DNA from: Candidatus Saccharimonadota bacterium
GTDB lineage: Bacteria; Patescibacteriota; Saccharimonadia; Saccharimonadales; UBA4665
Length of the DNA stretch: 32,000 nt
Direction of reading: 5' to 3'
NCBI GenBank assembly: GCA_016700375.1
Contig: CP065016.1
Coordinates: 330,001 to 362,000 of the forward strand
In this document: one piece after another, positions 1,197-18,628 of the stretch
Layout of the letters: the number at the start of each line of letters is the position of its first letter
Numbering within the stretch: the first letter of the stretch is position 1
Notes under the pieces: generated by a model
What the model was told of the DNA's origin: nothing
The model's input: the letters and a program-made list of their open reading frames with translations, nothing else
Databases searched by the model: none
Made by a program: the position numbers and the translations under genes

Positions 1197-2207
1197 TTAC
1201 TTTTTTTTAGAAAAATGCTGCCAGTCTTTGTTCAAGCCGTTAAAATCGCCACCCCAAGTCCAGCCCCGTTCAGTGAACAGTTGAATTACCTGAGCACCCA
1301 GCGCGGTATCTCTGCCGAGCATTCCAGGACTTAATTGATCCCTATTGAGATAATCTGTTCCTGCTAATGGCGATACTTTTGTTCCGTTCAAGCTTAGAAA
1401 TGGATTCTGCAAGGGGTTAATATCTACCGCGAGTCCATATCCGTGGCTAGATACGGTCGGCGGTGTTTTATCGGGAACATTCCGGCAATTGAACCCAGAC
1501 GTGTTATTCGCTTTCATAGAATATGCGTCGATTTTTTGTGCCTCAAATAGATTGGGTGTTGCCAAAGTTTTTGGTGCAAGCTTTTCAAGCGGCTTAACGG
1601 TGTCGAGCGGAAACCCTAACGAATACATTTTCTCAAAGATTTCGGCAATATCATTAGCGACCGATTTATGCACATCAATCTCACCCGTGCGACTACTGCC
1701 ATCAAAGGCAACATACGGAACATACACTCGCCTGAGTTCAGCTGGCGTAGCCAAGCAACCAGCCCGCCACGACACATTATTCATTCTAGCTATTTGCAAA
1801 TCTGTAAGGGTATTTATACGACTTTTTGGCAACCCTATGCAACCACCGCCTGTCTGCAGAACGGCGCCCAAAACTGCTTCACCTAGAACAGATTGATTAA
1901 ACCGGCGAATATCTTCCTCGGGCAATCCCTCTCGAGTTGCTATTTGCCCGAGGTCCATCGGTTTTTCGACAGGGGTACGCGTGTGTCCTGTGGCCACAAG
2001 AGTTCGGCATGTATCAGATAGGTCATTGGGCGACGGCGTAGCACCTATAGCATTCGGTGACGGACCAACCGTGGCGAAGGCGTCTGCCTCTGCTGTTAAC
2101 ACAGAGGCAGGTCTTGCTGGTCTTGCCGATTCATCCGACGAACATCCACCCAATAAGACTGCAGTGACCAACCCTGCTCCAATAATCACATTATGGTTTG
2201 TTTTCAT
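1197..2207 (-). CDS. lipoprotein with C-terminal M15-family zinc peptidase domain (VanY / D-Ala-D-Ala carboxypeptidase-like)
   Basis: There is a signal peptide with lipobox LLGG|C. The zinc ligand pattern is H-x6-D in 'SSHGYGLAVDIN' plus 'WTWGGDF..DWQHF'. It is the last gene of the minus-strand operon. Confidence 0.8.
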   Translation of the reverse strand: MKTNHNVIIGAGLVTAVLLGGCSSDESARPARPASVLTAEADAFATVGPSPNAIGATPSPNDLSDTCRTLVATGHTRTPVEKPMDLGQIATREGLPEEDIRRFNQSVLGEAVLGAVLQTGGGCIGLPKSRINTLTDLQIARMNNVSWRAGCLATPAELRRVYVPYVAFDGSSRTGEIDVHKSVANDIAEIFEKMYSLGFPLDTVKPLEKLAPKTLATPNLFEAQKIDAYSMKANNTSGFNCRNVPDKTPPTVSSHGYGLAVDINPLQNPFLSLNGTKVSPLAGTDYLNRDQLSPGMLGRDTALGAQVIQLFTERGWTWGGDFNGLNKDWQHFSKKK

Positions 2208-2235
2208 GCTACAAACACTTTTATTACTTTATATC

Positions 2236-5200
2236 CTACTTAAATATTGCGACAGCAACGCTGTTTGCATCAAAAATATCGCTCTGTGGATCATAGGCTA
2301 CCATGGTTTTTGCAAAACTATTAGGATCTAAGACAAGTATCTTTCCTTCGGCGGTAACTCCTCGAATGACAAAGATGTGGCCACCTTTTGTACCAGGTGT
2401 CGCGGGATCTGTATCGGTTCCATTGGTAATGACATAGCCCCCAGCGTCAGTAACCTTTTTAATCTCTTCAAGAGAATCGGGATTAATGTTTTTTGCTTTT
2501 AGACCAAAGTGTTCCGCGATAGCTGCAAATGCGCCGTGTGACGTTCCTTCGTCGGCTCGAAAACCTTTCTTTACGTTTAATTCGCCAACCTCAACAGGGC
2601 TAATAAACCGCCCCAAAAGGTTAGAATAGACCATAGCTTGGCTGGTAGGGCCGCAGCCGCTCGATGTTATTGTTCTGCCACTTTGGTCAGGGCGTTGATA
2701 TGCACTTTCGGCCCACCGTTCATCATGCTGGTTTAAGTAGGTATGACCCTTCCACTTGTCTGGTACGGTTTCGCTGCCTTTTTTCATGCCTACTACTTTG
2801 CCGTTCTCATATACTGGCACGATTGTTCCGTGCCATTCGCCTTCAGCTCCTTCCGGCGCCGCTGGCTTTTCAGCCTTTGGCTGTACTACTGCCTGACCCG
2901 CAACCATAGCCTCAATTTTTGCTTTGTTTGCCATGATTTTCCTGACATACTTCTGGGTTTCTTCAAATGGCGGTATGCCTTTGTACTTCAATACATTTCC
3001 GAACCCGGCATTATAGCCTGCAAGCATGAGTTCATATGGATCCCCCTGTACCTTACCGGCAGCCAACGCACTCTGCGCGTTCTTGAACTGCTGGGAAAGA
3101 TAATATGCCTGAGCAGGAATTGCATACTTGACATCAAATGGGCTTGCGTCTGACGGGAAGTTTAGGTCTTTAACTATTTGCCCCCAGGTTGCATCTATAA
3201 ACTGAGCAATCCCTTTAGCTTCGCCGGATTTTGTCATCGGACCGACAGCGTCCTTTTTAAAGTTCGATTCTGCTTGAGCATCCGAAACAGTAATAGACAC
3301 AGGGATGCCATATTTATTAGCTGATGCAATGAATAAGTCAATATATTCTTGTGGTACTTTAAATTCAGCCAAGGCATTTTTTAACGCTGCCAATTGCGCT
3401 TCTGGGTCTATAGGTTTTTCTGCACCAGGACTTACAGGCTTTTGTTCCCCTGGAGCGGGCTGTTCCGGAGCATTTGGAGTTTCTGTTTGTACAGGCACTG
3501 GGGCGACTGGTTGCTGGGCGGCCTCGGCTGCTTTTGCTTGTGCAATAATATCGGCGAGTTCTTGCGCGTTTAAGTTATGTACATCAGAAAGCGCAACTAG
3601 TTTCGCTAGTTTCTGTAACTGTTCTTCGCTATAGAGATTTTTTCCAGCGCTAAATTGTTCTGTTTTGAGGAATTTTTCCATGCCATCCTCTACAAACTGC
3701 AAAATATACTTCTTGTCTGCCGGGGCAATACCTTCGGGGAGGCTTGAGAGCAAAATATTATAGACTTCTTTGGTTTGCGAGTTATCAAAAACATCTGGAA
3801 GCTGCGAGGCAACAACTGCGTGTGCAATGTAATTTTTGGCTGTCGTCGTAAAATCACCGTCTTTCTTGCTCACGGTATCGGCAACCCCTAAGAACATATT
3901 CGTAACGCGGTTAGGATCTTTCAGGGTAGCACCGGTCACTCCCTGGAACCCACGGAGCAGACTATCCGCGAGTTCCAGGGTACTCTTCGTAAGAACTTCA
4001 GCATGCTTAACTGCATCTTTTAAGATAGTCTCTTGGGCGGGAGGAAGCGTAACTTTTTTTGGGGTCACAATCGATTGGCCAGAACCGACTTCCGGTTGTG
4101 AGGGCGCTTGCCCATCAAGTGTCGGGCCAACGGCCACCGCACCAAGCGCCTCGCCACTGCTAAAAACTCTAGGCGCAGCAGTTGAAAACCTAACCTCGGA
4201 GGCAGCGGGTGGGGCAGCAGGGGCAGCTTGTGCGCCACTGACCGATCCGCCGAGTCCGGTTGAAACGACGATTATGCCGCCGAAACCAGCCTGAACGTCA
4301 GCTGGCTGCGCGGTCGTGCGACTAGACTCTGCGACAGGCCGTGGTGAGCTGGGCATGGCAGCAGCGCCAGATGCATTCGTAACGATTATTGCGCCCGCCA
4401 CAGCGGCGGTTGCAGCGGTCCGGACGGGACCTTTATGTGTTCGAAGCCATTCCCCAACATCTACCGTTGTGACCCTGCCGCCCGACTCTTGACCGGGGAT
4501 ATACGTTGGGTCGGTAATCTTGGGCTGTTTTTTCTCGGCACCAGGCATACGGACATCAACAATCGGTGATTTTTTGGGCGCAGACTCGGGTGTTTGCGCA
4601 GGAGAATCCGACCGCCGTGAACCATCCTTTTGTGGCTCAACATAGGTGCGCCCACAGGCCTGGAGCACCTGGGCTGCAGAGTGCCGATAGTTCGCAGGGA
4701 AGCTAGGAGCATTCAGCATTCTTTCGGCTGCCGCTACCAAATGATTTACCGTAGCACTCACACTTTCGAACCCTTTTTGGTTGTGTGGATTCTGACGGTT
4801 GTGAGCTACGATTTCTTGACTGATAGCAAGGGTTGTCTGCATGAGATGTGTCACATCTATGGGGTCGGGGCTTACTGGCTTCTTTGGATTACTCGCTAGC
4901 TGTGCCAGGCATCGGCTAAGTAGTGTCACCATACGTGCATCAAGCGCCTGCGGCAGCCCAACGAACCGGCTGACCTCATCATAGCCGCGCATTTTTGCCC
5001 GCTCGCCAACTATAACACTATTCGCAAAATTTCCTGCGAGTGCTTCGGCCTTCTTTGCGGCCTCGCTCGGCGGCAATTTTTTGTGCTCCGGGAGGTGCCG
5101 AACGGCTTCAATAAATATTTTTTCATTAAAATCCTTTTCCGGTTTACGTAGTTCATGTTTCAGACGCTCAAGTAAAGCTTCTCGATGTGCTACTCTGTCA

Positions 5201-5568
5201 ATGTCGTTTAAAGCCAAAACCCGTGCTTCCGACACAGGCAACCCTGCTTGTAGCGAACCGGTAAACGCGCCCCGTTTGTATAGTTCATCAAAATCGCGTC
5301 GAAGCCCTGAAACGTAAGGATTCTTGGCCATTTCTGGGTCATTATCATCGGCAATCCGCACTAATACTGAACCTTTTGCTCGGCTCGCAAACACCGGAAG
5401 CGCCTCAAGCGGTACTACTGTCTGATACATATCATGTAACAGCCCGGCAGCATTCTGCCTGAGTGTCCGAACAGCGTCAGGTGCAAAATCCTGCTGCGCG
5501 CCGGCTGGTGTTTCGGTTTCGACTGGTGGCATAGCTTCCGGTGCTGCGTTTCTACTTCTTCTAAACAT
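2236..5568 (-). CDS. 1110-aa membrane-anchored bifunctional peptidoglycan hydrolase: SLT lytic transglycosylase plus C39-like (papain-fold) cysteine peptidase
   Basis: SD AGGAG lies 6 nt upstream. The SLT motifs are 'AESNF', 'GIAQF' and 'AGYNAG'. The C-terminal 'YLNQHDERW..SGCGPTSQAMV..GGHIFVIRG..LDPNS' gives a Cys/His/Asp triad as in Peptidase_C39_2. A single TM (AATAAVAGAIIV) follows a ~390-aa N-terminal domain, then a Pro/Ala/Gly-rich spacer. Confidence 0.85.
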   Translation of the reverse strand: MFRRSRNAAPEAMPPVETETPAGAQQDFAPDAVRTLRQNAAGLLHDMYQTVVPLEALPVFASRAKGSVLVRIADDNDPEMAKNPYVSGLRRDFDELYKRGAFTGSLQAGLPVSEARVLALNDIDRVAHREALLERLKHELRKPEKDFNEKIFIEAVRHLPEHKKLPPSEAAKKAEALAGNFANSVIVGERAKMRGYDEVSRFVGLPQALDARMVTLLSRCLAQLASNPKKPVSPDPIDVTHLMQTTLAISQEIVAHNRQNPHNQKGFESVSATVNHLVAAAERMLNAPSFPANYRHSAAQVLQACGRTYVEPQKDGSRRSDSPAQTPESAPKKSPIVDVRMPGAEKKQPKITDPTYIPGQESGGRVTTVDVGEWLRTHKGPVRTAATAAVAGAIIVTNASGAAAMPSSPRPVAESSRTTAQPADVQAGFGGIIVVSTGLGGSVSGAQAAPAAPPAASEVRFSTAAPRVFSSGEALGAVAVGPTLDGQAPSQPEVGSGQSIVTPKKVTLPPAQETILKDAVKHAEVLTKSTLELADSLLRGFQGVTGATLKDPNRVTNMFLGVADTVSKKDGDFTTTAKNYIAHAVVASQLPDVFDNSQTKEVYNILLSSLPEGIAPADKKYILQFVEDGMEKFLKTEQFSAGKNLYSEEQLQKLAKLVALSDVHNLNAQELADIIAQAKAAEAAQQPVAPVPVQTETPNAPEQPAPGEQKPVSPGAEKPIDPEAQLAALKNALAEFKVPQEYIDLFIASANKYGIPVSITVSDAQAESNFKKDAVGPMTKSGEAKGIAQFIDATWGQIVKDLNFPSDASPFDVKYAIPAQAYYLSQQFKNAQSALAAGKVQGDPYELMLAGYNAGFGNVLKYKGIPPFEETQKYVRKIMANKAKIEAMVAGQAVVQPKAEKPAAPEGAEGEWHGTIVPVYENGKVVGMKKGSETVPDKWKGHTYLNQHDERWAESAYQRPDQSGRTITSSGCGPTSQAMVYSNLLGRFISPVEVGELNVKKGFRADEGTSHGAFAAIAEHFGLKAKNINPDSLEEIKKVTDAGGYVITNGTDTDPATPGTKGGHIFVIRGVTAEGKILVLDPNSFAKTMVAYDPQSDIFDANSVAVAIFK

Positions 5569-5594
5569 GACTGGCTCCTATTACCGTATATTAT

Positions 5595-6587
5595 TTACCC
5601 TTGGTCTTTAACGATATTTAAGATAGACGGAACCTCTCTGGGTTTCCCAACAACTGCACCCGATATTGTGCTCGGCTGAGGATCAGGGGAATGCGGAAAT
5701 AGTCCGCTGGGAGCATCTAGTACCACCTGCGCCCTATCGCGCAAACCTCCCGCGACAAGCCGTGTTGTTGCGACAATAGATGTATACTGTCTTACAAAAT
5801 CCATGACTCTCATAAGGACTACCGTCGCAAGTTCATCGGACAACCCTTCAGTAGCAGCAATAATTTTTCGCATTGCTTCCCGCTGCTTCGCCGCATCATT
5901 CTGGGCGTTCGGGATAGCCACATGTAAACGATTTAGTAAACTTTCAACTGTTTGGTCAACATCATATTCTTTCATCTCTTTTTCAAAATCACCCAGGATA
6001 CGTCCTTTGGGTGGATTTTGCACAAGATGAGTTCGCTGGCGAACAATTGACTGCATGTCCTGAAGTGCTAACTTTGAGTGAGAGTCCTCTGTCTTGACGG
6101 CAGCTTCATAACCCTTGTGAAAACCACGAAATAGTTCTTCTTGACTCCTGTTATGCGAACCGTAACGTCCCAGGGCTATTAACAGCTCATCCCCCCTCGT
6201 CACGATGCCATCTTCGGGTAATCGTGCGTCTTCTGCAGTTGGCTGGCCAGGGAGCTTTCTATCGCGGGCAAATAACTCCGTGCGAAAATATTGACTACGA
6301 ATATCTGCTGCGTTTCGCACAGCCCCGACCACAAATGAAAGTGCCCCCACTTGAAGCTCAACCCGCTCAAAAGGATTTTTCACCGGGTACTGTTCTTGTT
6401 CATAAAAACTGGTCGATAGACCCCTCACAATTTGGGGCAGATTTACTGGTGCTACGTCCACCAATTCTTCGCCAACCGCCAGACTGCCCACTGGTGCTAC
6501 CGCAAACTGAGCATCTGCATGTACAAGCGCCAAGCTTTTATCACTCTCAGGTTGAATCCTTTGTCTCAGTGTATCCATTATTCCCAT
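5595..6587 (-). CDS. hypothetical soluble protein (330 aa), operon member
   Basis: SD AAGGAG is upstream, 16 nt after the preceding stop. There is no TM segment and I recognise no motif. The antisense ORFs 5803-6030 and 6224-6802 lack SDs. Confidence 0.7.
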   Translation of the reverse strand: MGIMDTLRQRIQPESDKSLALVHADAQFAVAPVGSLAVGEELVDVAPVNLPQIVRGLSTSFYEQEQYPVKNPFERVELQVGALSFVVGAVRNAADIRSQYFRTELFARDRKLPGQPTAEDARLPEDGIVTRGDELLIALGRYGSHNRSQEELFRGFHKGYEAAVKTEDSHSKLALQDMQSIVRQRTHLVQNPPKGRILGDFEKEMKEYDVDQTVESLLNRLHVAIPNAQNDAAKQREAMRKIIAATEGLSDELATVVLMRVMDFVRQYTSIVATTRLVAGGLRDRAQVVLDAPSGLFPHSPDPQPSTISGAVVGKPREVPSILNIVKDQG

Positions 6588-6603
6588 GTCGGCTGGTACT
6601 CCT

Positions 6604-8058
6604 TTATGATTTATCCGGTATTAGGGTTGTTACTGGGTCGGGTTGGTCGGGCTTGGTGGCTTTCGTGACGAGCTGCACGGTGCTCGTACTGACTTTCGCG
6701 GCCGCAAGATACGCCTTAACAACAGCCTCTCCTTGGGCGGAGATGGTGTCATCACCCTTAAATATGACCTGGAGGATGGTATTTGGGTCATTCAGACCAT
6801 AGGCCTTTTTCATACCTTCCTTAACCATGTCGATAAGTGTTACTTTATGCTGACCACTGTAGATACTTTGCATACCTGCCGCAATAACCTCTTGTATCAT
6901 ATTGACCTGGTTTTCTTCGTATTTCTTTTTGATGTGAGTAATTACTGCCTGAACGGCCATCTCTTGGGTTGAAGTGGCTGGATAGAGATTGGGCGGTATG
7001 ACTTCTTTAAGTGGGGCAGTTGGCTCGGTAAACAGCTTCGCAACATTAGCGATACACGTCTCATACGGGTTACTTGGCTGGTCTTTTTTGCAGTCAATAC
7101 GGTCAAAAAACGGCGGCACATCAGTTTTGGTTGCAGCTTCGGACGGGTTTGGTTTGATAGTCACAGAGACTTTACTGAGGTCAACAGTTGCGATTTTCTT
7201 TGCTTTGTCTATAGCCACCGCCGATTTGGCCGGGTCGACGTCGTACGGCGCATTCAAAACAATCAGGCCCGTCCAGGGTGCGGTAGTACGGAACATATTT
7301 TCCGCCGGCAAATCGGTGAAACCATTAAATTTGGTCGGGTCAGCAGGAGAGGTAAAATTCCAAGATGTTTTAGCGGTTGTTTCTGCTTTAAAGGTAGCGA
7401 TTGTGGCATCCTTGAGCGGCCCTGTCTTACCATTCACAATTGCAGCACCGTCGGCAATAACAAGACTCTCTGCCGATATACCTGAGCGGCCGGGCAGGAA
7501 GCTCATTAGCTTGTCGCGAAATACCACCCCAGCGCCAGATAGACCAACCGCAAGTGCAGCCACAACGGCAACACGTTTTTTGTGCGAGGTTCTTGGCCGC
7601 TCCAGTGGTACCAAATGGGAGGGTAATTCACCTATATGACGAACGGTGGTCGGGCCAGATGGCGCTACGGGCGCAGAATTATTACCGTACCTTAAGGGCG
7701 TGCCGCGGCGGCGACTCTCTAACGCAGCACCAAACATACCTTGCGCAAGCACAAGTGCTGCCCCCTCTACGTCTATACCCATTAGCGGCGAGGACCCCGT
7801 ACCCTCATAGTATTCGGATGGGTGAGTATCATCTGTGCCTGGTATGGTTTGTCGTCGCGCCACCGTGCCGGCATGAGGGGAACCAAGGGCTTCGTGACGA
7901 GTGCGTGCGGCCTGACGGTCGGTTGATAAACCAATCGGGGCACTGTGCGGTAGCACAACGTATGGTTCCGGCGCGGGCCGGACTGGCGGTTGGTCCGCCG
8001 CTGGCGGTATTTCAGCAGCCGGCCCAGAAGCAGACCGTCGCCATGGCAGTGGGGGCAT
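6604..8058 (-). CDS. hypothetical bitopic membrane protein (484 aa): Pro-rich cytoplasmic tail, one TM, ~300-aa exported domain
   Basis: ATG at 8058 overlaps the upstream TAA (TAATG), with GAGGTG 6 nt upstream; the track's GTG at 8064 is an alternative start. The TM is 'VAVVAALAVGLSGAGVVF'. The exported part is Lys/Thr/Pro-rich. Confidence 0.7.
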   Translation of the reverse strand: MPPLPWRRSASGPAAEIPPAADQPPVRPAPEPYVVLPHSAPIGLSTDRQAARTRHEALGSPHAGTVARRQTIPGTDDTHPSEYYEGTGSSPLMGIDVEGAALVLAQGMFGAALESRRRGTPLRYGNNSAPVAPSGPTTVRHIGELPSHLVPLERPRTSHKKRVAVVAALAVGLSGAGVVFRDKLMSFLPGRSGISAESLVIADGAAIVNGKTGPLKDATIATFKAETTAKTSWNFTSPADPTKFNGFTDLPAENMFRTTAPWTGLIVLNAPYDVDPAKSAVAIDKAKKIATVDLSKVSVTIKPNPSEAATKTDVPPFFDRIDCKKDQPSNPYETCIANVAKLFTEPTAPLKEVIPPNLYPATSTQEMAVQAVITHIKKKYEENQVNMIQEVIAAGMQSIYSGQHKVTLIDMVKEGMKKAYGLNDPNTILQVIFKGDDTISAQGEAVVKAYLAAAKVSTSTVQLVTKATKPDQPDPVTTLIPDKS

Positions 8059-8594
8059 TACCACACCTCACTTTCGTTCACTTGGAGCGGTATAGCGACT
8101 TCACGAGACTCGACCGCAACCACGCTAGGGACAACAATAGACGAGATGGACGAGATTCCCCGGGTGGGTTCTGCTGGCGGCGTGCATAGCACATCACTCT
8201 TGGGCATAAGGGTATTGATTGCGACATTGGCAACGGGATTCTGTTTTGCCCAGCATATACCTGCCGCACCAGACTTGTACGCGCCCACTTCAGCACCGTA
8301 GTGTACTGCTGGAACGGCCGCTGCAAATAGCACGAGGCTAACAACCCTCCCCGCTAATCCGCTTTTCCTCCCCTGGGGGCTAGGACCCCGTCGTTCAGCG
8401 CCCATTTGCGAATACTGCGGGTAAGGAATGCGGTCATGTGGGGCAAAATCTTGCCGGTACGGAGCGACTGCGCGAGTTTGCGGCAAATTTGCAGGAGCAT
8501 TTGGGTCTACGATAACCAGTTCTTGAAGACCCGTTCGAGTATTCACAACCCGAATCACGCGCTGACCGGCCCCAACATCATGTCGCTTACTCAT
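8058..8594 (-). CDS. hypothetical bitopic membrane protein (178 aa)
   Basis: The start overlaps the upstream stop (ATGA at 8591-8594). The TM is 'VVSLVLFAAAVPAVHYGA'. The ~75-aa C-terminal domain contains two Cys. Confidence 0.65.
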   Translation of the reverse strand: MSKRHDVGAGQRVIRVVNTRTGLQELVIVDPNAPANLPQTRAVAPYRQDFAPHDRIPYPQYSQMGAERRGPSPQGRKSGLAGRVVSLVLFAAAVPAVHYGAEVGAYKSGAAGICWAKQNPVANVAINTLMPKSDVLCTPPAEPTRGISSISSIVVPSVVAVESREVAIPLQVNESEVW

Positions 8595-9658
8595 AGTTTC
8601 GTCGCCCCCTCCAAGCCTTTATTTACCTGCTCAGGCGACAAAGGCTTACAAACCGGAGCAGGACCCTGGAGCTCGAAAGTGAGCTTTAATGACTGGTCTG
8701 AAGTATTTTTTTCTAAAACCTCTTTCTTGGCGTCTGCATACTGATTGTCGAGCGTAATGCTGTCGGGGAGCGTTACGGCAACATCGGCTGGCGTTATTGG
8801 ATTACCTGGATTGTATTGGTTGTATTCTTTCACAACTTTGTCTTTAAGACTTGTCGCAACCTGTTCCTTCAGCGTTATCCAGGCTGGGTTCGCGCAGGCC
8901 TTTGTAACATAGTCTGCCGCAGCCCAGCGAGCCACATCGCGCCCGTAGGTGCGCAAAATGTCAGCACCAGAGGCGCTGGGGTCATTATTGAGCCCAAGGG
9001 TAAATAGCACCGTCTTGAGTTGCTCGTCAATCTGCGATGCCGCCGTGCCGCCAATATTCATCACTTGGCCATAGGCCTTTGGGTCGATAGGGTTTGTCGG
9101 ATATACGAATGTTTCCCAGGTAGAGCCATCGGCCGTTAGCGTAACCCGCGGTGTACCTTTTTTTGCGTCATTATCTATGATACGTTCGAGCGTTTTTGAC
9201 TGCGGGCAAATAATATTCGTCATATTCCCAGTGTATGTCGTGACAATAGTCGGGTCTAACGGCCCCATCACAACTGGTAAATCGACATCAACCTGGCTTT
9301 TCGTTGCCACGTCTGAGCGATACCCCCCTATACAGGTTCGGTCAAGAGCAAAGGTATCGGTGACCTTGCCGTGTTTCACCTCTACCGATGTATGTACGCC
9401 GACCTGGGCCATTGTATCTTCTATCAGGTTCGAGAATCCCTGGAAGGCACCGTGCAGTGCGGCACCTGCCAAGACCAAGAAAGCACCGGCGCGTAGCGGG
9501 TGCCTCGCTACGTTGCCAAATAGCATACCGGGCATAAACACACCAGCGTCAGACCGGAGTCGGTTCATACCTGTTATTTGTGCACTGTCTTGCGTGCAGT
9601 CTGGCATACCGTCATTCGGTTGCGATTGCGTTTCAGGTGTTGGAGCCGAGAGACTCAT
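8591..9658 (-). CDS. hypothetical bitopic membrane protein (355 aa), first large gene of the operon
   Basis: SD AAAGAGGT lies 8 nt upstream of ATG 9658. The TM is 'AGAFLVLAGAALHGAF', followed by a ~280-aa exported domain with no motif I recognise. Confidence 0.7.
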   Translation of the reverse strand: MSLSAPTPETQSQPNDGMPDCTQDSAQITGMNRLRSDAGVFMPGMLFGNVARHPLRAGAFLVLAGAALHGAFQGFSNLIEDTMAQVGVHTSVEVKHGKVTDTFALDRTCIGGYRSDVATKSQVDVDLPVVMGPLDPTIVTTYTGNMTNIICPQSKTLERIIDNDAKKGTPRVTLTADGSTWETFVYPTNPIDPKAYGQVMNIGGTAASQIDEQLKTVLFTLGLNNDPSASGADILRTYGRDVARWAAADYVTKACANPAWITLKEQVATSLKDKVVKEYNQYNPGNPITPADVAVTLPDSITLDNQYADAKKEVLEKNTSDQSLKLTFELQGPAPVCKPLSPEQVNKGLEGATKL

Positions 9659-9896
9659 GGTGCATTACCTCTTTGGTTATACTTGTTACGCCGGCGTCCA
9701 ATAGGGCACCGGATCCCTCTGTTGCGGCAACCAAGCACGTGGACAATGTCGACACGTCAGCTCGGATGTCGTCCATGCACCATTTCATGAGCACGTAGCC
9801 CAAGAAGTTGCATGGCCAGCGGACGGGAACCACCCCTTCGTGTCTGCTGGTCATACAGCTCTTGCGTTCCTTATACCTCACGCAAGTATGGTTTTG

Positions 9897-9924
9897 AGTA
9901 TACATTCTCAGTATCGTATGTCAA
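9897..9924 (-). promoter_or_regulatory. sigma70-type promoter for the envelope operon
   Basis: The minus strand reads TTGACA (9924-9919), a 16-nt spacer, then TATACT (9902-9897), preceded by an A-rich tract (aaaaagtaaaaaatg). This predicts a ~230-nt leader before ATG 9658. Confidence 0.45.
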
Positions 9925-9976
9925 CACATTTTTTACTTTTTGTATAAATGATGTAATGTACTCAATCTGCTTATGC

Positions 9977-11077
9977 TTATTCTATGCTGGCCTTAGGTAC
10001 CGGCACAGAACCAGCTGGCAATCCTGCCAGCCCGAGCAGCTCATTGTGTGGCATATAGCAAATATTCCAGTCTAATGATCGTAGCCGGGAGCCTGCTAAT
10101 GAACCATCGAATTGCTGATGTTTCGCGCCCGAATTCATAAACGTACCATCGCTTTTCTTGATTCTATAACTCACAAGTAGCTGTCGAAAGCCTGGGGCTG
10201 TATACGTTCCAAGTCGCTCACGCTGCCAAAGCCCTGACTGGTCTTCTGCCCGTACCGCATGGGCAATTTCCTCTGGGCTCATGAGGAGGTTTCCGCCTGC
10301 GACTTCGCTAGCCCGCCACTGCCTGCCCCACCACAGCACCGTTCCAGGCACATGCGGTGGGTTATTCATGACGCTTTCTTGAGCGCTCATGGCCTTATGT
10401 GTATTGGCCGCCTGCATTCTGTCACGCGAACCCCACATCCAAGGTGGAATGTAGGCAACCAGCTGGCGTTTAGGGTCTGCTAGATTCGTAAGAAGTCTCT
10501 CAGTAAAAGCCTGTAGCATATCACGCGTCAAATCATGATATTCACCGCGTATTTGATATTGCTCAAAGTTCACCGCCGGGACAATTCCAGTAGCGCCGTT
10601 TGTAGCTTCTGTAAAATAGTCTGCCTGTTTTACCGGGTCTGAGTCGGTCAGAGCGTGATAGGCAATGGTAACGAGCCCCGCGTCTGCCAACCGGCGCCGC
10701 ATAGTGTCATAATTGGGCTCACGTACTGTAGCTCCTTGCGTGCTAGATTTTGGCATACCCACCGTTGCGCGGACGGCACAAAAGGCCAGGCCAGCTTTAG
10801 CCATTTTTTTCGCATCTAGCAGCCCACTTGCAAGATTGTTGGCTGCGTCTGGCCTTGCTTCTAGCGCATCATAGCGAGAAAAGTCCGGCCCCATAAGTAG
10901 GGGCTGCGTGGTGGTAAAAATGGGTGATTCTGTCGTCGTACCGGTAGTAGACCGTTCTTCACTGTGAGCTGACCCACCCGGGGTGCAGGCCGCCAAAACG
11001 CCAGCAGCGACAAGGCCCGTACTAGCAAGCATAAAGCTTCGGCGAGATATAAGCGGTGATTCGAACTGTTCTGACAT
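9977..11077 (-). CDS. Tat-signal lipoprotein with GH25-like (muramidase-fold) domain
   Basis: ATG 11077 has AGGAG 8 nt upstream. The signal is 'SRRSFMLASTGLVAAGVLAAC', a twin-arginine motif plus lipobox. The rest is colinear with GH25 lysozymes: 'GPDFSRY' (GIDVSHW), 'AKAGLAFCAVRATVG', 'AGLVTIAYHAL', 'QADYF', 'AVNFEQ' (the DxE position reads NFE) and 'LWWGRQW'. Confidence 0.6.
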   Translation of the reverse strand: MSEQFESPLISRRSFMLASTGLVAAGVLAACTPGGSAHSEERSTTGTTTESPIFTTTQPLLMGPDFSRYDALEARPDAANNLASGLLDAKKMAKAGLAFCAVRATVGMPKSSTQGATVREPNYDTMRRRLADAGLVTIAYHALTDSDPVKQADYFTEATNGATGIVPAVNFEQYQIRGEYHDLTRDMLQAFTERLLTNLADPKRQLVAYIPPWMWGSRDRMQAANTHKAMSAQESVMNNPPHVPGTVLWWGRQWRASEVAGGNLLMSPEEIAHAVRAEDQSGLWQRERLGTYTAPGFRQLLVSYRIKKSDGTFMNSGAKHQQFDGSLAGSRLRSLDWNICYMPHNELLGLAGLPAGSVPVPKASIE

Positions 11078-11420
11078 GATATAACTCCTGGTATTCTGCT
11101 GCATGCGAGCTTCGTACTGTACACGAGATTCAAACTTTGAGCTCATGTGCATTTTCTCCTCGAACATCGGAACGAGCCGTACTAAAGTACGGTGAAGTGA
11201 GTACTGGAGAGGAAAAATGTGCAGGAGCCGAAGAAGCCAGCGGTGCGGCCAGCTTCGCTGGACGGCAGGCTGGCTGGTGCGAAACTCGTGTTGTGAAGCG
11301 TCTGAAAGTTAGGTTTCAGCGATGTATTATCTTGGGTCGTGCTGGGGGAGAAGGAGTGAGTATGAGTACTCAGCTTTAGTGTTATCCTTCTTCCCCAGCG
11401 TGGTGGTGACCCGTCGACGC

Positions 11421-12242
11421 CTACGTGGCGTCAGCGTAGACGTGCTTGCGGTGCATCTCTGCGAGCAGCTCCTCGACGTCGTCGGCGGCGTCGTCGGCGT
11501 CGTCGACCACTTCGCCCGCGATGACGTCGCGGTCGGCGTGGTTGGGGACCTCGTAGAGGTCCTCCAGGCTGGCCGTCGAGGGCCCCTTGTTGGCCTTCTG
11601 TAGCTGGTGCGCCGCGCGCCCGAACCGACGGAGGAGGCCGAAGAGTATGCCGACGACGGCGAATGTGACCTGGACGAGCAGGAGAACCCACTTGACCGAC
11701 CAGTCCAACTCGGTCTTGTACTGCGGGTCTTGGCTGGTATATGCCAACGCCAGCATGCTGTGCATGAAGTCGTAGACCACCAACCAAAACACCATGCTCA
11801 GCACCAACCGGACATCACCCCAGGGGGCGACGTTGCCAACGACCGGCAGCGTTGCCAGCCGGGGCAGGAAGTGCCCGACGACCGGCGCCGCGGCCAGCAG
11901 CAGCACCGGGAGGCAGACCAGCACGAACCTGCCGGCACGCCATCCGAAGGCCCACCGGCCTTCGTACGCGGCCGTTCGGTTCCACCAGTCGATGGGGCCG
12001 GCCAAGACCAACACCATCAGCGGGGCGGCCAACAACACGTACCAGCCGACGGGCTGCAGGTAGCGCACGACCTCGATGGTCGAGCGCTGGTCGACGGGCA
12101 GGGCTGCCCTCGACACGAGCCACAGCCCTGCCAGAGCTGCGACGAGGCGCCACAGCGGCCGCGTCCCGTGGCGCTGGGAGTGGCCGAACTGTCGCTCACC
12201 CGCGGTGAGCATGAGCTGTCGTGCTTGAAGAGTCATCTTCAT
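11421..12242 (-). CDS. polytopic membrane protein with acidic C-terminal tail, encoded in high-GC island 1
   Basis: ATG 12242 is preceded by GGAAGGTGAGG. There are 5-6 hydrophobic helices, codon third positions are saturated with G/C, and the tail is 'VVDDADDAADDVEELLAEM'. The many overlapping ORFs in other frames are high-GC artefacts. Confidence 0.65.
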   Translation of the reverse strand: MKMTLQARQLMLTAGERQFGHSQRHGTRPLWRLVAALAGLWLVSRAALPVDQRSTIEVVRYLQPVGWYVLLAAPLMVLVLAGPIDWWNRTAAYEGRWAFGWRAGRFVLVCLPVLLLAAAPVVGHFLPRLATLPVVGNVAPWGDVRLVLSMVFWLVVYDFMHSMLALAYTSQDPQYKTELDWSVKWVLLLVQVTFAVVGILFGLLRRFGRAAHQLQKANKGPSTASLEDLYEVPNHADRDVIAGEVVDDADDAADDVEELLAEMHRKHVYADAT

Positions 12243-12339
12243 GACCCTCACCTTCCTTTCGACGAGGATTTTTGCGAAGAGCAGTGAAATGACCATAGGG
12301 GTCACCACCATGCATAGGTATACACTATTTCATCACACA

Positions 12340-12408: not shown

Positions 12409-13482
12409 ATGGCACGCAATAATTATGATGAAGGTGGTTACGGCGACTTCGAATATGATGTATATGGACCAGATGCATACGGCAATACCCCTCCTCGGTT
12501 CTACACCCAACCCGGTGCAGGGGACTACCCAGCGAGCGGCTTTGAGCCAGTAGTGACACTCCCTCGCCGGCGGTGGCCTGCATTTGTGGCTGGAGTAGTT
12601 TTAACCCTTGGCATTCCTCCCGCTTGGGAAACATTTGTTTCACCTCATTTTGGCACCGTTGCAGCCGCTACACCAACGGAAACGACTGCACGCAAAGCAG
12701 CGGCCGCAAGCCCAAGCTCTAGCGCACAGTCGACCAAAACAAAGACCACTGCACCCAGCGTGACGAGTACTGTCACTCCGACTGCGCCAGCCGGTACGTC
12801 GCCAAATGCAGAAGCTTGTCCGGTACCAGCTGCCACGCCCATGAAGGCCGCACCAGGCAAGGGAAAGACCGTTGCGCTGACTATAGATGACGGTCCTAGC
12901 CCGCAAACACCGAAAGTTCTCGAGATTTTACAGCGCGAGGGTGTACCGGCAACGTTTTTCGTAACGGGTGAGCACGCTGCGCGCTACCCAGCCGAGCTTG
13001 GTAAGATAGCGCTCGCTGGCCACCTTGTGGCCGGGCACAGCTACGACCACCGCTATCCTACAGAGGTTAGCGGCGGCTGGACACCAGCTTTTCTTGCCGA
13101 CCAACTGAGCAGGACAAACAGCCTCATCACCAAAGCTACCAATAATCCGGTTTGCTTTTTCCGTCCACCAGGCGGTTTTATGACCAACGTTATCGAAGCC
13201 GCACAGCGTGTGGGGCAACGCACGGTTATGTGGTCCGTAGATAGCGAGGATTGGAAGCAACCAGCGGGCACGACTACTGAGGCAACTGCCGCTATCGTCA
13301 AAGCTGCAACCAATGTAAAAGACCAAACGAACCCTATCATACTCATACACGAAGATAAAGCCAGCCACGAGCCTGAGACTAAGGTTTCGTCGAACAGAAG
13401 CAATACCCTCGCTGCGCTGCCGGAAATTATCCGGTGGTACCGAGCGCATGGCTATACATTTGTCACGCTTGACGGAAAATAA
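12409..13482 (+). CDS. membrane-anchored polysaccharide (peptidoglycan/chitooligosaccharide) deacetylase, NodB homology domain
   Basis: SD TAAGGAG lies 8 nt upstream. The N-terminal TM is 'AFVAGVVLTLGI', followed by an Ala/Thr/Ser/Pro linker. NodB motifs present are 'TIDDGP', 'GHSYDH' and 'FFRPPGG'. Confidence 0.85.
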   Translation: MARNNYDEGGYGDFEYDVYGPDAYGNTPPRFYTQPGAGDYPASGFEPVVTLPRRRWPAFVAGVVLTLGIPPAWETFVSPHFGTVAAATPTETTARKAAAASPSSSAQSTKTKTTAPSVTSTVTPTAPAGTSPNAEACPVPAATPMKAAPGKGKTVALTIDDGPSPQTPKVLEILQREGVPATFFVTGEHAARYPAELGKIALAGHLVAGHSYDHRYPTEVSGGWTPAFLADQLSRTNSLITKATNNPVCFFRPPGGFMTNVIEAAQRVGQRTVMWSVDSEDWKQPAGTTTEATAAIVKAATNVKDQTNPIILIHEDKASHEPETKVSSNRSNTLAALPEIIRWYRAHGYTFVTLDGK

Positions 13483-14818: not shown

Positions 14819-15039
14819 ACCACCGTTTTACCTCATCATGTCCAAAAAGTAAATTGCTTGTCTTTGTGTTTTTGTCAATACGCATGTATAACTAGGCCTG
14901 AATCTCGGACACACCCGTCCTGATGGTTCGCGTTGTAGTACGCGGCCGCCCACAAGGCAACCCGTACCCACACATTAGGCCCCGGACCAACCCGGTCTGC
15001 TGGGCTTATGTCCTTTTACACCCCCCGAAGGAGGAGACC

Positions 15040-16071
15040 ATGCGAAACGTTCAGAAATGGGCGCCAGTAGCGTTCATAGCAACCGCACTAGTCATTGTGC
15101 TGGGGCTTGCCCTAGTCACGATATCGGTCGGCGGCAACGCCGCGCCGGGCTGGTTGGCCGCCGCCCTGCTCATCGGCACTGCCGTATGGCTCGCACGCCG
15201 CCCACGCCGCCCGCTCCCGCCGTCGCTCCAGGAGCGACTGGGCGTCGAACTCGCCGAGCGCGGCGTCATGCACGCCGTCGCCGGCACGGTCGAGGAGGAA
15301 GCTCCCACCCAGGAGCTCCCACCCGCACCGGAACCGACGCCAACGCACGACGAGCCAGGTGACGACCCTGTGGTTCAGCGCGCGCTACGACACTGGATTT
15401 CCCAGTTACCATCGTTGCTCGTGGCAGCCGGTTCGCTCGTCGCGTTGGTCGTCGTCCGCGCGAACGAGGACAACGGCGTCTACGGCTGGGTCATCGCGAT
15501 CCTCGTGATGATTGGCTTCGGGATCATCGTCCTGCGGCCTTACTTCGCAGCCGTAGAAAAGGTTGGCGAAGCCTACCGACGACTCCGGGGCATCAAGCGT
15601 ACCACAATCGCGTGGACGAGCATCGGCATCGGCTGTCTCATCGCGGCGTTCGTCCTCTGGTGGTACCAAGCCCAGGTCTCACTGGACCTCAGCTGGCTGT
15701 GGTCGGCGCTGGTGTGGCTCGCTGAGCGACTGTGGGGACTCGCGCAAGCGGTGTTCCAGTCGCCCGCCACGGCGATGACGGTCGTCATCGCGTTCGCCTT
15801 CATCAAGATGGTGTTCTCGCTGCTCGTCTGGGCGAGCAACCCCATTGTGATCACGGAGGCGTCGATCACGGCCGTGTCGGGAATTCTCCGCAAGTCGGAA
15901 CCAAAGGTCGATTTTGACCAAATCACCGACTTGACTCCCGTCTACCCCTTCAAATTGCGCCGCATCCAGCTGCCATGGTGCACGCTCAAGGTCGAGACCG
16001 CGGGACAAAACCAGGGGTTCGATGAGATCCCATGGTTCCCGACGAAGTATTTGCGATACGTCAAGACCTGA
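15040..16071 (+). CDS. polytopic membrane protein with C-terminal bacterial-PH-like (YdbS/YdbT, bPH_2-like) domain, encoded in high-GC island 2
   Basis: ATG 15040 is preceded by GAAGGAGGAG. There are several TM helices. The C-terminal 'ITEASITAVSGILRKSEPKVDFDQITDLTPVYPFKLRRIQLPWCTLKVETAGQ' resembles bPH domains; that domain call is tentative. The region shows very high GC3. Confidence 0.65.
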   Translation: MRNVQKWAPVAFIATALVIVLGLALVTISVGGNAAPGWLAAALLIGTAVWLARRPRRPLPPSLQERLGVELAERGVMHAVAGTVEEEAPTQELPPAPEPTPTHDEPGDDPVVQRALRHWISQLPSLLVAAGSLVALVVVRANEDNGVYGWVIAILVMIGFGIIVLRPYFAAVEKVGEAYRRLRGIKRTTIAWTSIGIGCLIAAFVLWWYQAQVSLDLSWLWSALVWLAERLWGLAQAVFQSPATAMTVVIAFAFIKMVFSLLVWASNPIVITEASITAVSGILRKSEPKVDFDQITDLTPVYPFKLRRIQLPWCTLKVETAGQNQGFDEIPWFPTKYLRYVKT

Positions 16072-16178
16072 CGGGTCGCAAAGGGTGTTGAAGGACATGG
16101 AGCGCGGCGGGCGTACGAGGCAACCCCTCACACCCCGCCGCGCTCCAAGACACTCTATGTATAAAAAGAAGTTACATT

Positions 16179-16228
16179 ACCTGAATCACGAAGCTTTTGT
16201 CCGTGTCATTCCGAGCACTAAATCAAGA
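16179..16228 (+). repeat. left part of a short (about 89 bp) deletion derivative of the MITE, split by the IS3 element
   Basis: ACCTGAATCACGAAGCTTTTGTCCGTGTCATTCCGAGCACTAAATCAAGA is near-identical to the first ~47 nt of the copy at 17497. Confidence 0.7.
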
Positions 16229-16307
16229 TGTCACCCTCCCCATATACTGAACACACCGTCTAGCTAGCAGGCGGTACAATATATCTAATCTGAAGGGAGT
16301 TTTTCGT

Positions 16308-16565
16308 ATGCCTGTTGGCAAACATATTGAGCAACATATAAAAGATGAAATCATCCTCAAAATACGAGATGGTGGTCTCAAGGTCAGTGAAGCTGCTGAC
16401 CAGTACGGGGTTAGTAGCAAGACCATCTACGGTTGGCTAAGAGCTGGTGTTGTAGACGGCAACCGTAACCTCATCCTCGAAAACAATCGACTCAAGCGTG
16501 AGCTTGAGCAGGCCTACCGAGTGCTTGGTAGGCTGACCGCCGAAAGTCAGCGCCCAAAAGGTTAG
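16308..16565 (+). CDS. IS3 transposase OrfA (HTH DNA-binding plus leucine-zipper-like region)
   Basis: The HTH is 'LKVSEAADQYGVSSKTIYGWL', followed by the coiled 'LILENNRLKRELEQAYRVLGRL'. SD GAAGGGAG is upstream. Confidence 0.85.
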   Translation: MPVGKHIEQHIKDEIILKIRDGGLKVSEAADQYGVSSKTIYGWLRAGVVDGNRNLILENNRLKRELEQAYRVLGRLTAESQRPKG

Positions 16566-17446
16566 CTGCCCTGGACGAGGTCGACCCAGGGTGGCGCAAG
16601 CAATACAGCAAGCTCCTGGGCCTTGGCCGGACAAGCTACTATGTTCGTCCAGCGAAACAAGCAGAAACCGACCGACAGGCTATTGCGCGGCTACAGGCAG
16701 CCCACGAACTCCACCCATTCTACGGCGTCGACCGGTTAGCACTGCACCTTGGCTGGAACAAAAAGAAAACCAGACGTATCCGTACGCTTGCGGGTGTTAT
16801 CATACCGACACCAACTAAGAAGCGTCGGAGCGGTTGGTCTGCAGCAGCAGAGATTAGCGCACCGCCTAACGCTCTACAGTGCTACGCTCGTCTTAAAGAC
16901 GAGCTGCGGCCACAGGACGGTCAAAGCTATGCCGACATGGTCAATGCTCATGCGTGGGCGCAGGACTTTACATACCTGTGGTTCGAGAAGCGCTGGCACT
17001 ATCTGGCGGTGGTGCTCGACCTGAAAACCAGGCAAGTGGTTGGTTGGCGGCTCGGTACACGACATACCAGCGAGCTGACCCACGAGGCACTACTCGATGC
17101 ACTCAGCAAGCATCCAGCGCCAGCAATCCTCCACTCTGATCAAGGTTCTGAATACTTGAGCTACAGGCACCAAGACCTCTGCAACAAAATGGAAATCCAA
17201 CTTAGTGCGAGCACCAAAGCCAGCCCCTGGCAGAATGGTTTCATGGAGCGATGGTTTGGTGGCTTCAAGCGCGAAGTCTGCAACCTGACACAATACAAAA
17301 ACTTAGCGGCACTCCACGAAGCCATTGCCCTGCACATCTACTATTACAACCATAAGCGTATCCACAGCGCATTAAAGATGAGCCCGGCAGCTTACGCTGC
17401 CAGTCTCAACAAGAGAGACAGGGTGTTCGCTAAAAGGGGAGGTTGA
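16532..17446 (+). CDS. IS3 transposase OrfB (rve/DDE integrase core), expressed as an OrfAB fusion by -1 frameshifting
   Basis: The frame is open from 16532 with no start codon of its own until 16937. The DDE residues lie in 'WAQDFTYL', 'LHSDQGSEY' and 'NGFMERWF'. The C-terminal 'YYNHKRIHSAL' is typical of IS3. Confidence 0.8.
   Translation, partial: ADRRKSAPKRLAALDEVDPGWRKQYSKLLGLGRTSYYVRPAKQAETDRQAIARLQAAHELHPFYGVDRLALHLGWNKKKTRRIRTLAGVIIPTPTKKRRSGWSAAAEISAPPNALQCYARLKDELRPQDGQSYADMVNAHAWAQDFTYLWFEKRWHYLAVVLDLKTRQVVGWRLGTRHTSELTHEALLDALSKHPAPAILHSDQGSEYLSYRHQDLCNKMEIQLSASTKASPWQNGFMERWFGGFKREVCNLTQYKNLAALHEAIALHIYYYNHKRIHSALKMSPAAYAASLNKRDRVFAKRGG
16553..16559 (+). promoter_or_regulatory. 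programmed -1 ribosomal frameshift heptamer C CCA AAA
   Basis: An X XXY YYZ heptamer lies in the orfA frame 2 codons before its stop. The -1 frame is open from 16532 and continues into the DDE domain, giving the fusion ..ESQRPK/RLAALDEV.. Confidence 0.6.
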
Positions 17447-17451
17447 CAAGA

Positions 17452-17490
17452 TGACGTCTTCACGGTGTCAGTGAGATTCATGATTCAGAC
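17452..17490 (+). repeat. right part of the IS-disrupted short MITE derivative
   Basis: TGACGTCTTCACGGTGTCAGTGAGATTCATGATTCAGAC aligns to the right end (GATGACATTG..TTCGTGATTCAGGT) of the full copies, with a degenerate TIR. Confidence 0.6.
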
Positions 17491-17496
17491 TGAAGA

Positions 17497-17710
17497 ACCT
17501 GAGTCACGAAGCTTTTGTCCCTGTCATTCCGAGTACTGAATCAAGTTCAGCATAAACTCCGTCTGAGGAATCTCCTTATTTTACTTGTAGCTATATGGTG
17601 AAAAGAAGATCTTTCGACTTCTCCGCTGTGCAGCGGATTCGCTCAAAGCCTGCCCTCGACCCGATCGGGGGATGACATTGTATGGTGTTCTCTGGTTTCG
17701 TGATTCAGGT
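17497..17710 (+). mobile_element. MITE copy A (214 bp), non-coding
   Basis: The terminal inverted repeats are ACCTGAGTCACGAAGC and GTTTCGTGATTCAGGT. A perfect 6-bp target duplication TGAAGA flanks it (17491-17496 and 17711-17716). It matches the reverse complement of 23189-23423 apart from a few substitutions and one 21-bp indel. Confidence 0.8.
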
Positions 17711-17768
17711 TGAAGACTATTGCTTCCGTGTCAATTTTATGTAATAATTAAATGTACAGGAGAACCCT

Positions 17769-17999
17769 ATGGCAAAAGCATCATTTGAAACAGTACCAGA
17801 GCTACCGGGCGAGGAACCATTTCGCCCAGCGAGTGAAAAGAGTTCCGGCATTATCCTTTTTGGCACGCCGGCCACGACCGCGCACGGCGTACCAGGCCAC
17901 TGGACAGGAGGAAATGGAGACAAGGAATTCTACCCTACCCGGGAGTACATCGAGGGTATGCAACAGCCAGATACCCCAACCGAGCCAAATTCGTTCTAA
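17769..17999 (+). CDS. small hypothetical protein (76 aa)
   Basis: AGGAG lies 6 nt upstream of ATG 17769. The product is acidic and Pro/Gly/Thr-rich, with no motif I recognise. Confidence 0.5.
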   Translation: MAKASFETVPELPGEEPFRPASEKSSGIILFGTPATTAHGVPGHWTGGNGDKEFYPTREYIEGMQQPDTPTEPNSF

Positions 18000-18191
18000 G
18001 GTTCAAATAGCATTCCGATGTTGTAAAAATCGTATACTTTATTTGCGTTTGGGCAAAAAGTAGTACTCTATATGGGTAACGAAAGGCTCGTAGAGCCTTG
18101 AGGTGTAGTACCCGAACGGACACTCCCGTCCGATTCGGCTTGACATACCGCGGTCGCCCCTGTGGCACCGCAGAGAGGTAAGGTGGTCAGC

Positions 18192-18437: not shown

Positions 18438-18628
18438 ACCCGCCGGTCGGCGCGGAAGTACGAGATTCGTTCTCGCAACCCGCGCCGCCCCCGGCACTTT
18501 GGCAGCCCTGCAGGCTCAAGCCTCGCAAACTCACGTCGTTCGTGCCTCCCTCTCAACCCAAAACCTCTCACACTCCCCACTCTCGCCTTTCGTTACATTT
18601 CTCTTATCAACTAAACAAACTACTCTAT

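Follow-up and report, generated by a model that had tools for sequence, protein, structure and literature searches.

The window analysed here comprises 32,000 nucleotides (nt) of a Candidatus Saccharimonadota genome (assembly GCA_016700375.1, contig CP065016.1, positions 330,001 to 362,000 of the forward strand) and contains six tightly coupled open reading frames (ORFs), all in one direction on the minus strand (1197-9658), with a structured leader RNA in front of them. The ORFs are designated A (8591-9658, 355 amino acids [aa]), B (8058-8594, 178 aa), C (6604-8064, 486 aa from a GTG codon or 484 aa from the ATG at 8058), D (5595-6587, 330 aa), E (2236-5568, 1110 aa), and F (1197-2207, 336 aa). 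In case of gene C, the ATG at 8058 agrees with the MPPLPWRR N-terminus of its orthologues in the alignment. A and B overlap by ATGA and B and C by TAATG, and the remaining junctions are gaps of 16, 26, and 28 nt. A GGAG-like Shine-Dalgarno (SD) sequence is situated upstream of each of the genes A to E; that of F is weak.

A near-consensus sigma-70-type promoter (TTGACA-16-TATACT, score 11/12) is located at 9897-9924 on the minus strand and is the top one of nine sites in a scan of 11.6 kb; shuffled sequences yield 9.4 sites, so the number of sites as such is not enriched. Its -35 hexamer TTGACA is invariant in three lineages, namely the window, L001/2, and L005 (L numbers denote the genomic contexts introduced below). 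Genes A to F are thus predicted to constitute one operon, transcribed from a single promoter through the leader RNA. A first-pass annotation, made from the letters of the DNA, had described six coupled minus-strand genes of these sizes (C in its 484-aa form), the ATGA and TAATG overlaps, gaps of 16-28 nt, and the near-consensus promoter, all of which were recovered by the ORF listing, the reading of the junctions, and the promoter comparison. Its range of 2236-9924 encloses genes A to E and the promoter but leaves out F, although this gene was listed, and the GGAG-type SD that it assigned to every gene is present for A to E, but not for F with its weak SD.

The module has a narrow taxonomic range. 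A word-indexed search of 5.8 billion proteins returned three clusters for A, four for D, and six for C, and an exhaustive profile search of 1.84 billion representatives yielded 39 A-family clusters with lengths of 252-436 aa, of which all named members belong to Saccharibacteria or Saccharimonadales. A pattern scan with the A alignment revealed no relative in 185,579 GTDB species-representative genomes, and a narrower metagenome scan gave two short contigs only. When 72,556 plasmids and 50,697 phages were searched with A by tblastn, none of them matched, and the module is flanked by chromosomal genes with housekeeping functions (pur genes, uvrC, def, atpC, rhodanese); a prophage or plasmid origin was therefore rejected. 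The module is restricted to Saccharibacteria, and its carrier belongs to this epibiont (TM7) lineage and not to the classical Gram-positive bacteria.

Ten lineages of the A family were compared with regard to their genomic context. The order of all six genes is retained in L001-L004 (A 72% identical) and L005-L007 (A 51%), and the five-gene order A-B-C-D-E in L088 (A 31%); conservation of the neighbourhood had been proposed as a check in the first-pass annotation and is observed down to this degree of relatedness. At approximately 25-31% identity of A (L091/92 and L094), the homologue of A is accompanied by three unassigned genes of similar size and a large hydrolase gene. Within the same range of identity, L100 contains five co-directional genes, the fifth of which encodes a 302-aa protein without a hydrolase domain, and its contig ends just after; L096 contains the first three genes and then reaches the contig end, and the contigs of L093, L095, and L099 are too short for genes after A. 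The five-gene layout with a terminal hydrolase was observed in L001-L007, L088-L090, L091/92, and L094; A, three unassigned genes, and a large hydrolase gene recur on the A-carrying contigs of sufficient length, L100 with its hydrolase-less fifth gene aside. Profile comparison between the clade of the window and that of L091 recovered A and, within E, the glycosidase motif only.

Between the promoter and the start codon (ATG) of A, 238 nt accommodate a structured 5' leader RNA of ~205 nt (9655-9861, minus strand), which is supported by covariance models and covariation. Its mean column identity is 84% over ~207 nt in lineages whose A proteins are 51-72% identical and thus exceeds that of the proteins. 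A covariance model built on three sequences located the element immediately in front of A in L088 (9777-10004), L091/92 (9788-10004 in L091), and L094 (9011-9226), and a second model added L096 (3030-3189) and L099 (240-471); together with the copies of the window, L001 (9802-10004), and L005 (9513-9714), eight lineages in total possess the leader, in each case between promoter and start codon of A.

Covariation was counted in a MAFFT alignment of six lineages that was not fitted to the structure. The leader comprises 49 pairs in six helices, and 90% of the cells are paired compared to 30-36% with partners slid by one to three columns. Compensatory changes occur in 17 of the 49 pairs, and the observed values were matched by none of 500 shuffles. 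P1 forms a hairpin of 16 bp, in which the outer part (CUGYAUGACCA / UGGYCAURCAG) is invariant, the inner part covaries, and the apical loop is conserved for the most part. P2 consists of a hairpin in two parts and P3 of a variable one. Furthermore, CAUGG is predicted to pair with the start-codon region of A in a 5-bp helix, whose bases are nearly invariant and therefore beyond a covariation test; this pairing suggests translational masking of the A start codon.

No match of the leader was obtained in Rfam 15 (4227 families) at E<=10 for positions 9600-9990, nor at gathering thresholds for the whole window, which rules out a known riboswitch, e.g., for cyclic di-AMP (c-di-AMP). An overlying 90-aa ORF (9633-9905) was rejected as a gene since the indels of the leader are not multiples of three. 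Similar to translational riboswitches and structured leaders of cell-wall genes (ydaO/c-di-AMP class), the element lies between promoter and start codon of a wall-hydrolase operon and combines several covariation-backed helices with highly conserved junctions and loops and a predicted pairing over the AUG; unlike these, it lacks an Rfam match and a terminator-like element. We regard it as a candidate for a new class of cis-regulatory RNA in Saccharibacteria.

The region directly behind the leader is hypervariable. Comparing L091 and L094, the flanking proteins are 65-93% identical and the C-terminal 434 aa of E 78%, whereas the identity of A drops to 28% and no recognisable similarity remains in B, C, D, and the N-terminal ~340 aa of E. 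At the DNA level, identity amounts to 71-78% in the flanks, with the hydrolase-coding end in this range as well, and 77% over 318 nt of promoter and leader, but from the A start codon to the middle of E (~5.9 kb) no alignment was obtained. A third allele is given by L100, beside a rhodanese gene with 81% identity. The variable cassettes compared (L091 9995-15920, L094 9217-14609, and L100 2957-8276) are mutually unrecognisable over A to D and the N-terminus of E. Judged from these alignments, the cassette is bordered by the regulatory RNA on one side and by the junction of anchor and enzyme inside E on the other. The N-terminus of E changes together with A to D, and this co-change is the best available argument for an interaction of these five parts as one physical unit.

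Cassette loci such as those for capsule or O-antigen and the receptor-binding modules of phages likewise display conserved ends, a non-alignable interior, and at least three alleles at one syntenic site. Two differences are evident: the borders are here formed by a regulatory RNA and a point within gene E, and the variable content consists of membrane proteins instead of glycosyltransferases or tail fibres. A diversity-generating retroelement (RVT_1 reverse transcriptase, bAvd, and an HTH regulator) is located 1-2 kb downstream of the operon in L006 (10429-11835) and L007 (10021-11427).

Protein E consists of a cytoplasmic domain (residues 1 to ~385), a weak Ala/Gly-rich transmembrane segment (~387-405), a tether (405-515), a helical domain without known family (515-680), and a Pro-rich tether (681-722), followed by two enzymatic domains. 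The SLT domain (residues 745-874, window 2947-3336, minus strand; Pfam E=1.5e-13, 50.7 bits at a cut-off of 21.3) contains all of the motifs AESNF (E767), GIAQF, and GYNAG. The C39-like cysteine peptidase domain (residues 944-1083, window 2320-2739, minus strand; Peptidase_C39_2 E=1.9e-12, 48.4 bits at a cut-off of 24) possesses the catalytic residues in GCGPTS (C972) and GGHIF (H1064). The tethers of E are PAGSTQ-rich and extend over ~110, 42, and 25 aa. F is a lipoprotein (lipobox LLGGC with Cys22) with a C-terminal M15 zinc peptidase (Peptidase_M15_4 E=2.8e-16, 60.3 bits at a cut-off of 25) and the zinc ligands SSHGYGLAVD (H255, D262) and WQHF (H331). Three wall-cleaving catalytic domains thus appear to be intact, and the first-pass view of E as a bitopic giant with SLT and C39-like domains and of F as an M15 lipoprotein agrees with the Pfam matches and catalytic motifs.

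The enzymatic equipment differs among lineages. SLT and C39_2 domains in E and a separate M15 peptidase (F) occur in the window, and Phage_lysozyme2 and C39_2 with a separate M15 peptidase in L005. L088 has Phage_lysozyme2 alone and lacks F, which was found in L001-L007, and in L091 and L094 Phage_lysozyme2 and VanY (M15) are fused in E. The N-terminal 675 aa of E are kept in L088 while the hydrolase domains are swapped, and a swap on a conserved N-terminal part is also observed in L005. L091 and L094 display the reverse, i.e., an exchanged N-terminal part on a conserved hydrolase part.

The proteins encoded by A to D yielded no significant match in Pfam, NCBIfam, PHROG, or PADLOC, and profiles of C and D gave none among PDB sequences. 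A is bitopic with its N-terminus inside and an ectodomain of ~280 aa, and it is the sole protein of the module with family-wide sequence conservation. Cysteines C109, C151, C255, and C337 are invariant or nearly so in the A-family alignment, which fits an exported, disulfide-bonded domain; from these cysteines and the positive-inside flanks of the transmembrane segment, a topology with the N-terminus inside and the C-terminus outside is read. In an AlphaFold2 model of A based on 40 sequences (mean pLDDT 75.5, ectodomain mostly >85), a long transmembrane helix (57-83) is followed by a large antiparallel sheet (87-200) and then by a pair of long helices (231-282). Foldseek found no neighbour of this model in PDB at E<0.01 (best E 0.015), and BFVD, a collection of viral folds, gave no match. 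The sub-threshold fold matches are BPI, LBP, JHBP, SPLUNC1, and CETP, i.e., TULIP-like proteins, with a best probability of 0.82 and TM-scores of 0.2-0.32.

B is bitopic (transmembrane segment 79-97) with a small ectodomain of ~80 aa and evolves fast: its identity is 49% to L001 and 34% to L005, and it is unrecognisable in the L091 clade. C consists of a disordered cytoplasmic tail of ~160 aa with the short conserved motifs MPPLPWRR and ELPSHLVP, a transmembrane segment (165-183), and an ectodomain of ~300 aa; short conserved motifs occur in the disordered tails of A to C in general. The AlphaFold2 model of C (residues 150-486) has a core with pLDDT of 85-93 and the same order of elements as A, with long strands followed by long helices. 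Foldseek found neither a PDB neighbour of it (best E 0.3) nor TULIP-like matches, and profile-profile comparison of A and C was not significant (23%). D is devoid of transmembrane segments and presumably soluble and cytoplasmic; it is 100% identical to "hypothetical protein IPP75_01785" (Candidatus Saccharibacteria bacterium) in NCBI, on a contig of 1.26 Mb. The first four proteins had already been called unrecognisable, and this is upheld by the four family libraries and, for A, C, and D, by the comparison with solved structures; the assignment of A, B, and C as bitopic with exported domains and of D as soluble agrees with the transmembrane predictions, that of A being weaker.

Three genes next to the operon bear on its interpretation. 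Gene H (11421-12311, minus strand) encodes a polytopic membrane protein of 296 aa with ~5-6 hydrophobic segments and an acidic C-terminal tail, which lacks matches in Pfam, NCBIfam, and PHROG. It is located two genes upstream of the operon in the window; relatives with 65% identity in L001/2 and L005/6 are situated directly upstream of the leader and A, and a homologous 297-aa protein (E=1e-8) is encoded upstream of A in L088. In the clade of the window, H probably belongs to the complex. The gene between H and the promoter (9977-11167, minus strand) encodes a GH25-like protein of 396 aa (Glyco_hydro_25 E=1.2e-4, TAT_signal E=0.014, both below Pfam cut-offs) and is an insertion restricted to this genome, being absent from L001 and L005. 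Divergent to these genes, a peptidoglycan-type polysaccharide deacetylase is encoded at 12409-13482 on the plus strand (Polysacc_deac_1 E=7e-29, with PgdA-like NCBIfam matches), and L005 likewise has a deacetylase upstream of the module. The deacetylase possibly shields the wall of the producer against the producer's hydrolases and is not necessarily a component of the module.

We tentatively propose, with confidence slightly short of even, that the locus encodes an RNA-controlled, fast-diversifying envelope complex by which tethered wall hydrolases are anchored to the surface of the epibiont. A, B, C, H, and the anchor of E would form a membrane complex with the ectodomains of A to C outside, and its cytoplasmic side would include D, the N-terminal domain of E (385 aa), and the disordered tails of A to C. 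This complex would hold the glycan-cleaving (SLT or CwlT-type lysozyme) and peptide-cleaving (C39-like or M15) domains of E on long flexible tethers, and the lipoprotein F would contribute a third activity (M15). At the surface of the cell, most likely where it touches the host, peptidoglycan would be opened locally by the tethered enzymes; alternatively, the epibiont's own wall would be cut, letting a surface structure through. Synthesis would be controlled by the leader RNA, probably by masking the start codon of A until a signal is present. Assembly into one complex, the identity of the wall that is cut, and the mode of regulation are what we infer here.

Saccharibacteria live as obligate epibionts, and an action on hosts is assumed for their surface proteins and wall-degrading enzymes (PMC11665869); hosts can discriminate closely related epibionts (PMC13622651). 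Due to this obligate lifestyle, host discrimination, the hypervariable core, and the adjoining deacetylase, action at the host interface is favoured over housekeeping of the own wall. A more specific host-interface machine is conceivable, but in our view doubtful: the riboswitch-like leader would sense a contact or nutrient signal, the exchanged A to D and the N-terminus of E would set host specificity, the hydrolases would breach the host wall, and the ectodomain of A may carry or bridge host-derived molecules, while leader and hydrolase end would serve as homology arms for cassette exchange.

Several points weigh against the proposed surface complex. Membrane-anchored bifunctional hydrolases of Gram-positive systems usually cut the wall of the producer itself. 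The hypervariability of the core, which we infer to be driven by host or phage pressure, could be horizontal replacement without host-driven selection. The transmembrane segments of A and E are weakly hydrophobic (Kyte-Doolittle value ~1.4), which makes the topology of these two proteins less secure than in the case of B and C. The model of C, calculated from six sequences, reaches only a moderate mean pLDDT of 69.5. Finally, the leader is not universal, as it was undetectable upstream of A in L100, L093, L095, and L098 even with filters off.

The alternative that survives best is a housekeeping autolysin complex acting on the own wall during growth, budding, or daughter-cell separation and regulated from the cytoplasm, which is conceived by analogy to FtsEX-type systems and appears unlikely. 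It would account for the chromosomal location kept in related genomes, for the membrane or lipid anchors by which the hydrolases are held at the surface of the producer, and for the wall-related neighbours (deacetylase and GH25-like protein). On the other hand, ~39 clusters in part of the Saccharibacteria and the lack of a match in the pattern scan of 185,579 genomes argue against core machinery, a housekeeping regulator is not expected to diverge beyond recognition between flanks that are 65-93% identical, and neither an ATPase nor a known divisome component is present in the module.

A relation to type IV secretion systems (T4SSs) is suggested by the enzymatic end, as combination of a glycosidase with a cysteine peptidase is the Gram-positive VirB1 architecture (PMC12102498). 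In this case, the module would be a detached piece of a T4SS or a degenerate conjugation channel, with E and F as VirB1-like components, A to C as VirB8-like or other subunits, and VirB4 and VirB6 encoded elsewhere; we consider this quite improbable. The first genes of the T4SS cluster SEML1_0006-0019 of Ca. Southlakia encode a protein that combines two lysozyme-like domains and a Cys-proteinase, and a protein of >1100 aa with a C-terminal M15 fold (PMC10633639). VirB4, an NTF2-like protein, VirB6, and pilins are encoded in this cluster as well (PMC10633639, PMC12102498). Similar hydrolases next to VirB4 in Ca. Southlakia and relatives of E with a CwlT-type Phage_lysozyme2 domain are in line with a T4SS origin.

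In common with PrgK (pCF10), TraG (pIP501), CwlT (ICEBs1), and SEML1_0006/0007, the module comprises a membrane-anchored glycan-cleaving domain (SLT or Phage_lysozyme2), a cysteine peptidase, and additionally an M15 peptidase, either separate or fused. In contrast to these systems, VirB4, VirB6, VirD4, and pilin genes are lacking nearby, E contains a cytoplasmic domain of ~385 aa and an extra domain of ~165 aa, neither assignable to a family, the partners A and C are not NTF2-like, and the module is chromosomal and absent from the plasmids and phages searched. In detail, Pfam revealed no VirB4, VirD4, P-loop, or TraG family within 10 kb in the window, L001-L007, L088-L092, and L094, and PrgI, TrsD, and pilin genes were likewise not present within 10 kb in the long contexts examined. 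A and C resemble VirB8, TcpC, PrgL, and TraM in their bitopic topology with the N-terminus inside, and their ectodomains of ~280-300 aa are of a size like that of TcpC, but the predicted large antiparallel sheet with two long helices is different, and neither an NTF2-like nor a sequence match was found; the best PDB hits of the two ectodomain models have E values of 0.015 and 0.3.

Of the VirB4-, VirB8-, and VirB1-like features, only the last, a wall hydrolase (glycosidase plus peptidase), was observed. Due to the lack of an ATPase gene within 10 kb and the A and C models, which are not NTF2- or VirB8-like, the module is not considered a T4SS; further points against such an origin are the hydrolases and the separate NTF2-like protein that the Southlakia T4SS possesses, the missing plasmid and phage matches of A, and the housekeeping flanks. 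The shared pairing of hydrolases is a design principle and not evidence of membership in a T4SS machine. In the first-pass annotation, the logic of T4SS channels had been invoked and a search for VirB8/PrgL NTF2-like folds recommended. This logic holds for the hydrolase design, but not for the partners or an ATPase, so that its fallback, a distinct apparatus, is favoured, and the remark that VirB4/VirD4 ATPases are absent from the operon and its vicinity extends to 10 kb in every context. A polytopic protein, which was said to be missing as well, is encoded nearby by H as a conserved upstream partner, which has no family match that would mark it as VirB6-like.

The module could also be a variable surface or defence island, whose membrane proteins would act as phage-receptor decoys, exclusion factors, or an abortive-infection device, with the hydrolases as effectors or mere neighbours. 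The abrupt border of the cassette amid conserved flanks, the occurrence of three unrelated alleles at the same syntenic position, the retroelement just downstream in L006/L007, and a mad2-like methyltransferase elsewhere in the window are in agreement with this idea, which we nevertheless regard as highly unlikely, since nuclease, NTPase, and toxin domains are lacking and PADLOC gave no match for A to F or H, nor for the GH25-like protein; the result for A to F and H rules out a known defence system. To our knowledge, the combination of an RNA leader, an exported disulfide-bonded protein, and wall hydrolases resembles no described defence architecture. Least probable of all is a bridge for lipid or nutrient acquisition, in which the ectodomain of A, perhaps also that of C, would be a TULIP-like carrier of hydrophobic ligands and the hydrolases would clear a path to the host envelope: A has only BPI, LBP, JHBP, SPLUNC1, and CETP as fold matches and is the one protein under sequence constraint, and Saccharibacteria generally lack fatty-acid synthesis (PMC10633639), but all matches are below accepted thresholds (E>0.01, TM-score <=0.32) and C has none of them.

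In the recognition of hosts, the breaching of their walls, and feeding by ultrasmall epibionts, only type IV pili, a T4SS, and a few adhesins have been implicated so far (PMC10633639, PMC11665869). The locus supplies concrete testable parts in form of a Saccharibacteria-restricted module, tethered wall hydrolases that look active, and orphan membrane proteins without structural neighbour. Exchange or divergence of its core proceeds much more rapidly than that of the genome around it, which would be expected of a determinant of host specificity. The leader, being absent from Rfam, would represent a new class of regulatory RNA in a phylum for which few have been described. Even if the own wall should be the target, the RNA and the cassette architecture, with a regulatory RNA and an intragenic break point as borders, remain new. 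No described system is known to combine these parts, and four proteins and the RNA are not assignable to a family or fold; the enzymatic end, however, is of a familiar design (CwlT/PrgK/TraG-like), and the function of the module would be as outlined above.

The remainder of the window contains several further genes, of which the first four named here lie on the plus strand. A polytopic protein of 382 aa with a weak bPH_2 match is encoded in a GC-rich segment at 14923-16071, of which only the C-terminal ~80 aa are similar in L001 and L005. The region 16000-19000 is without long ORFs and displays a shifting GC content (0.64 at 15-16 kb); together with a truncated rve-type transposase of 169 aa (16937-17446), it looks like a decayed insertion-sequence region. 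Adjacent to it, a 293-aa protein with a C-terminal WhiB domain (19008-19889, E=2.8e-6) has conserved counterparts in L001 and L005. As WhiB is considered characteristic of Actinobacteria and actinobacterial phages, its presence hints at gene transfer from actinobacterial hosts. The mad2-like gene (20725-22449) encodes a 574-aa protein with a C-terminal methyltransferase domain (PADLOC mad2 [mads_2], E=1.7e-7); it is located in a low-GC stretch (20000-23000, 44-46% GC), is absent from L001 and L005, and this region probably represents acquired defence-related DNA. Finally, the de novo purine genes purB, purC, purK, purE, and purM are located at 23460-29997, which is unusual for Patescibacteria in general, and close homologues of PurB occur in dozens of environmental Saccharimonadales metagenome-assembled genomes (97%, 95%, and 90% identity).

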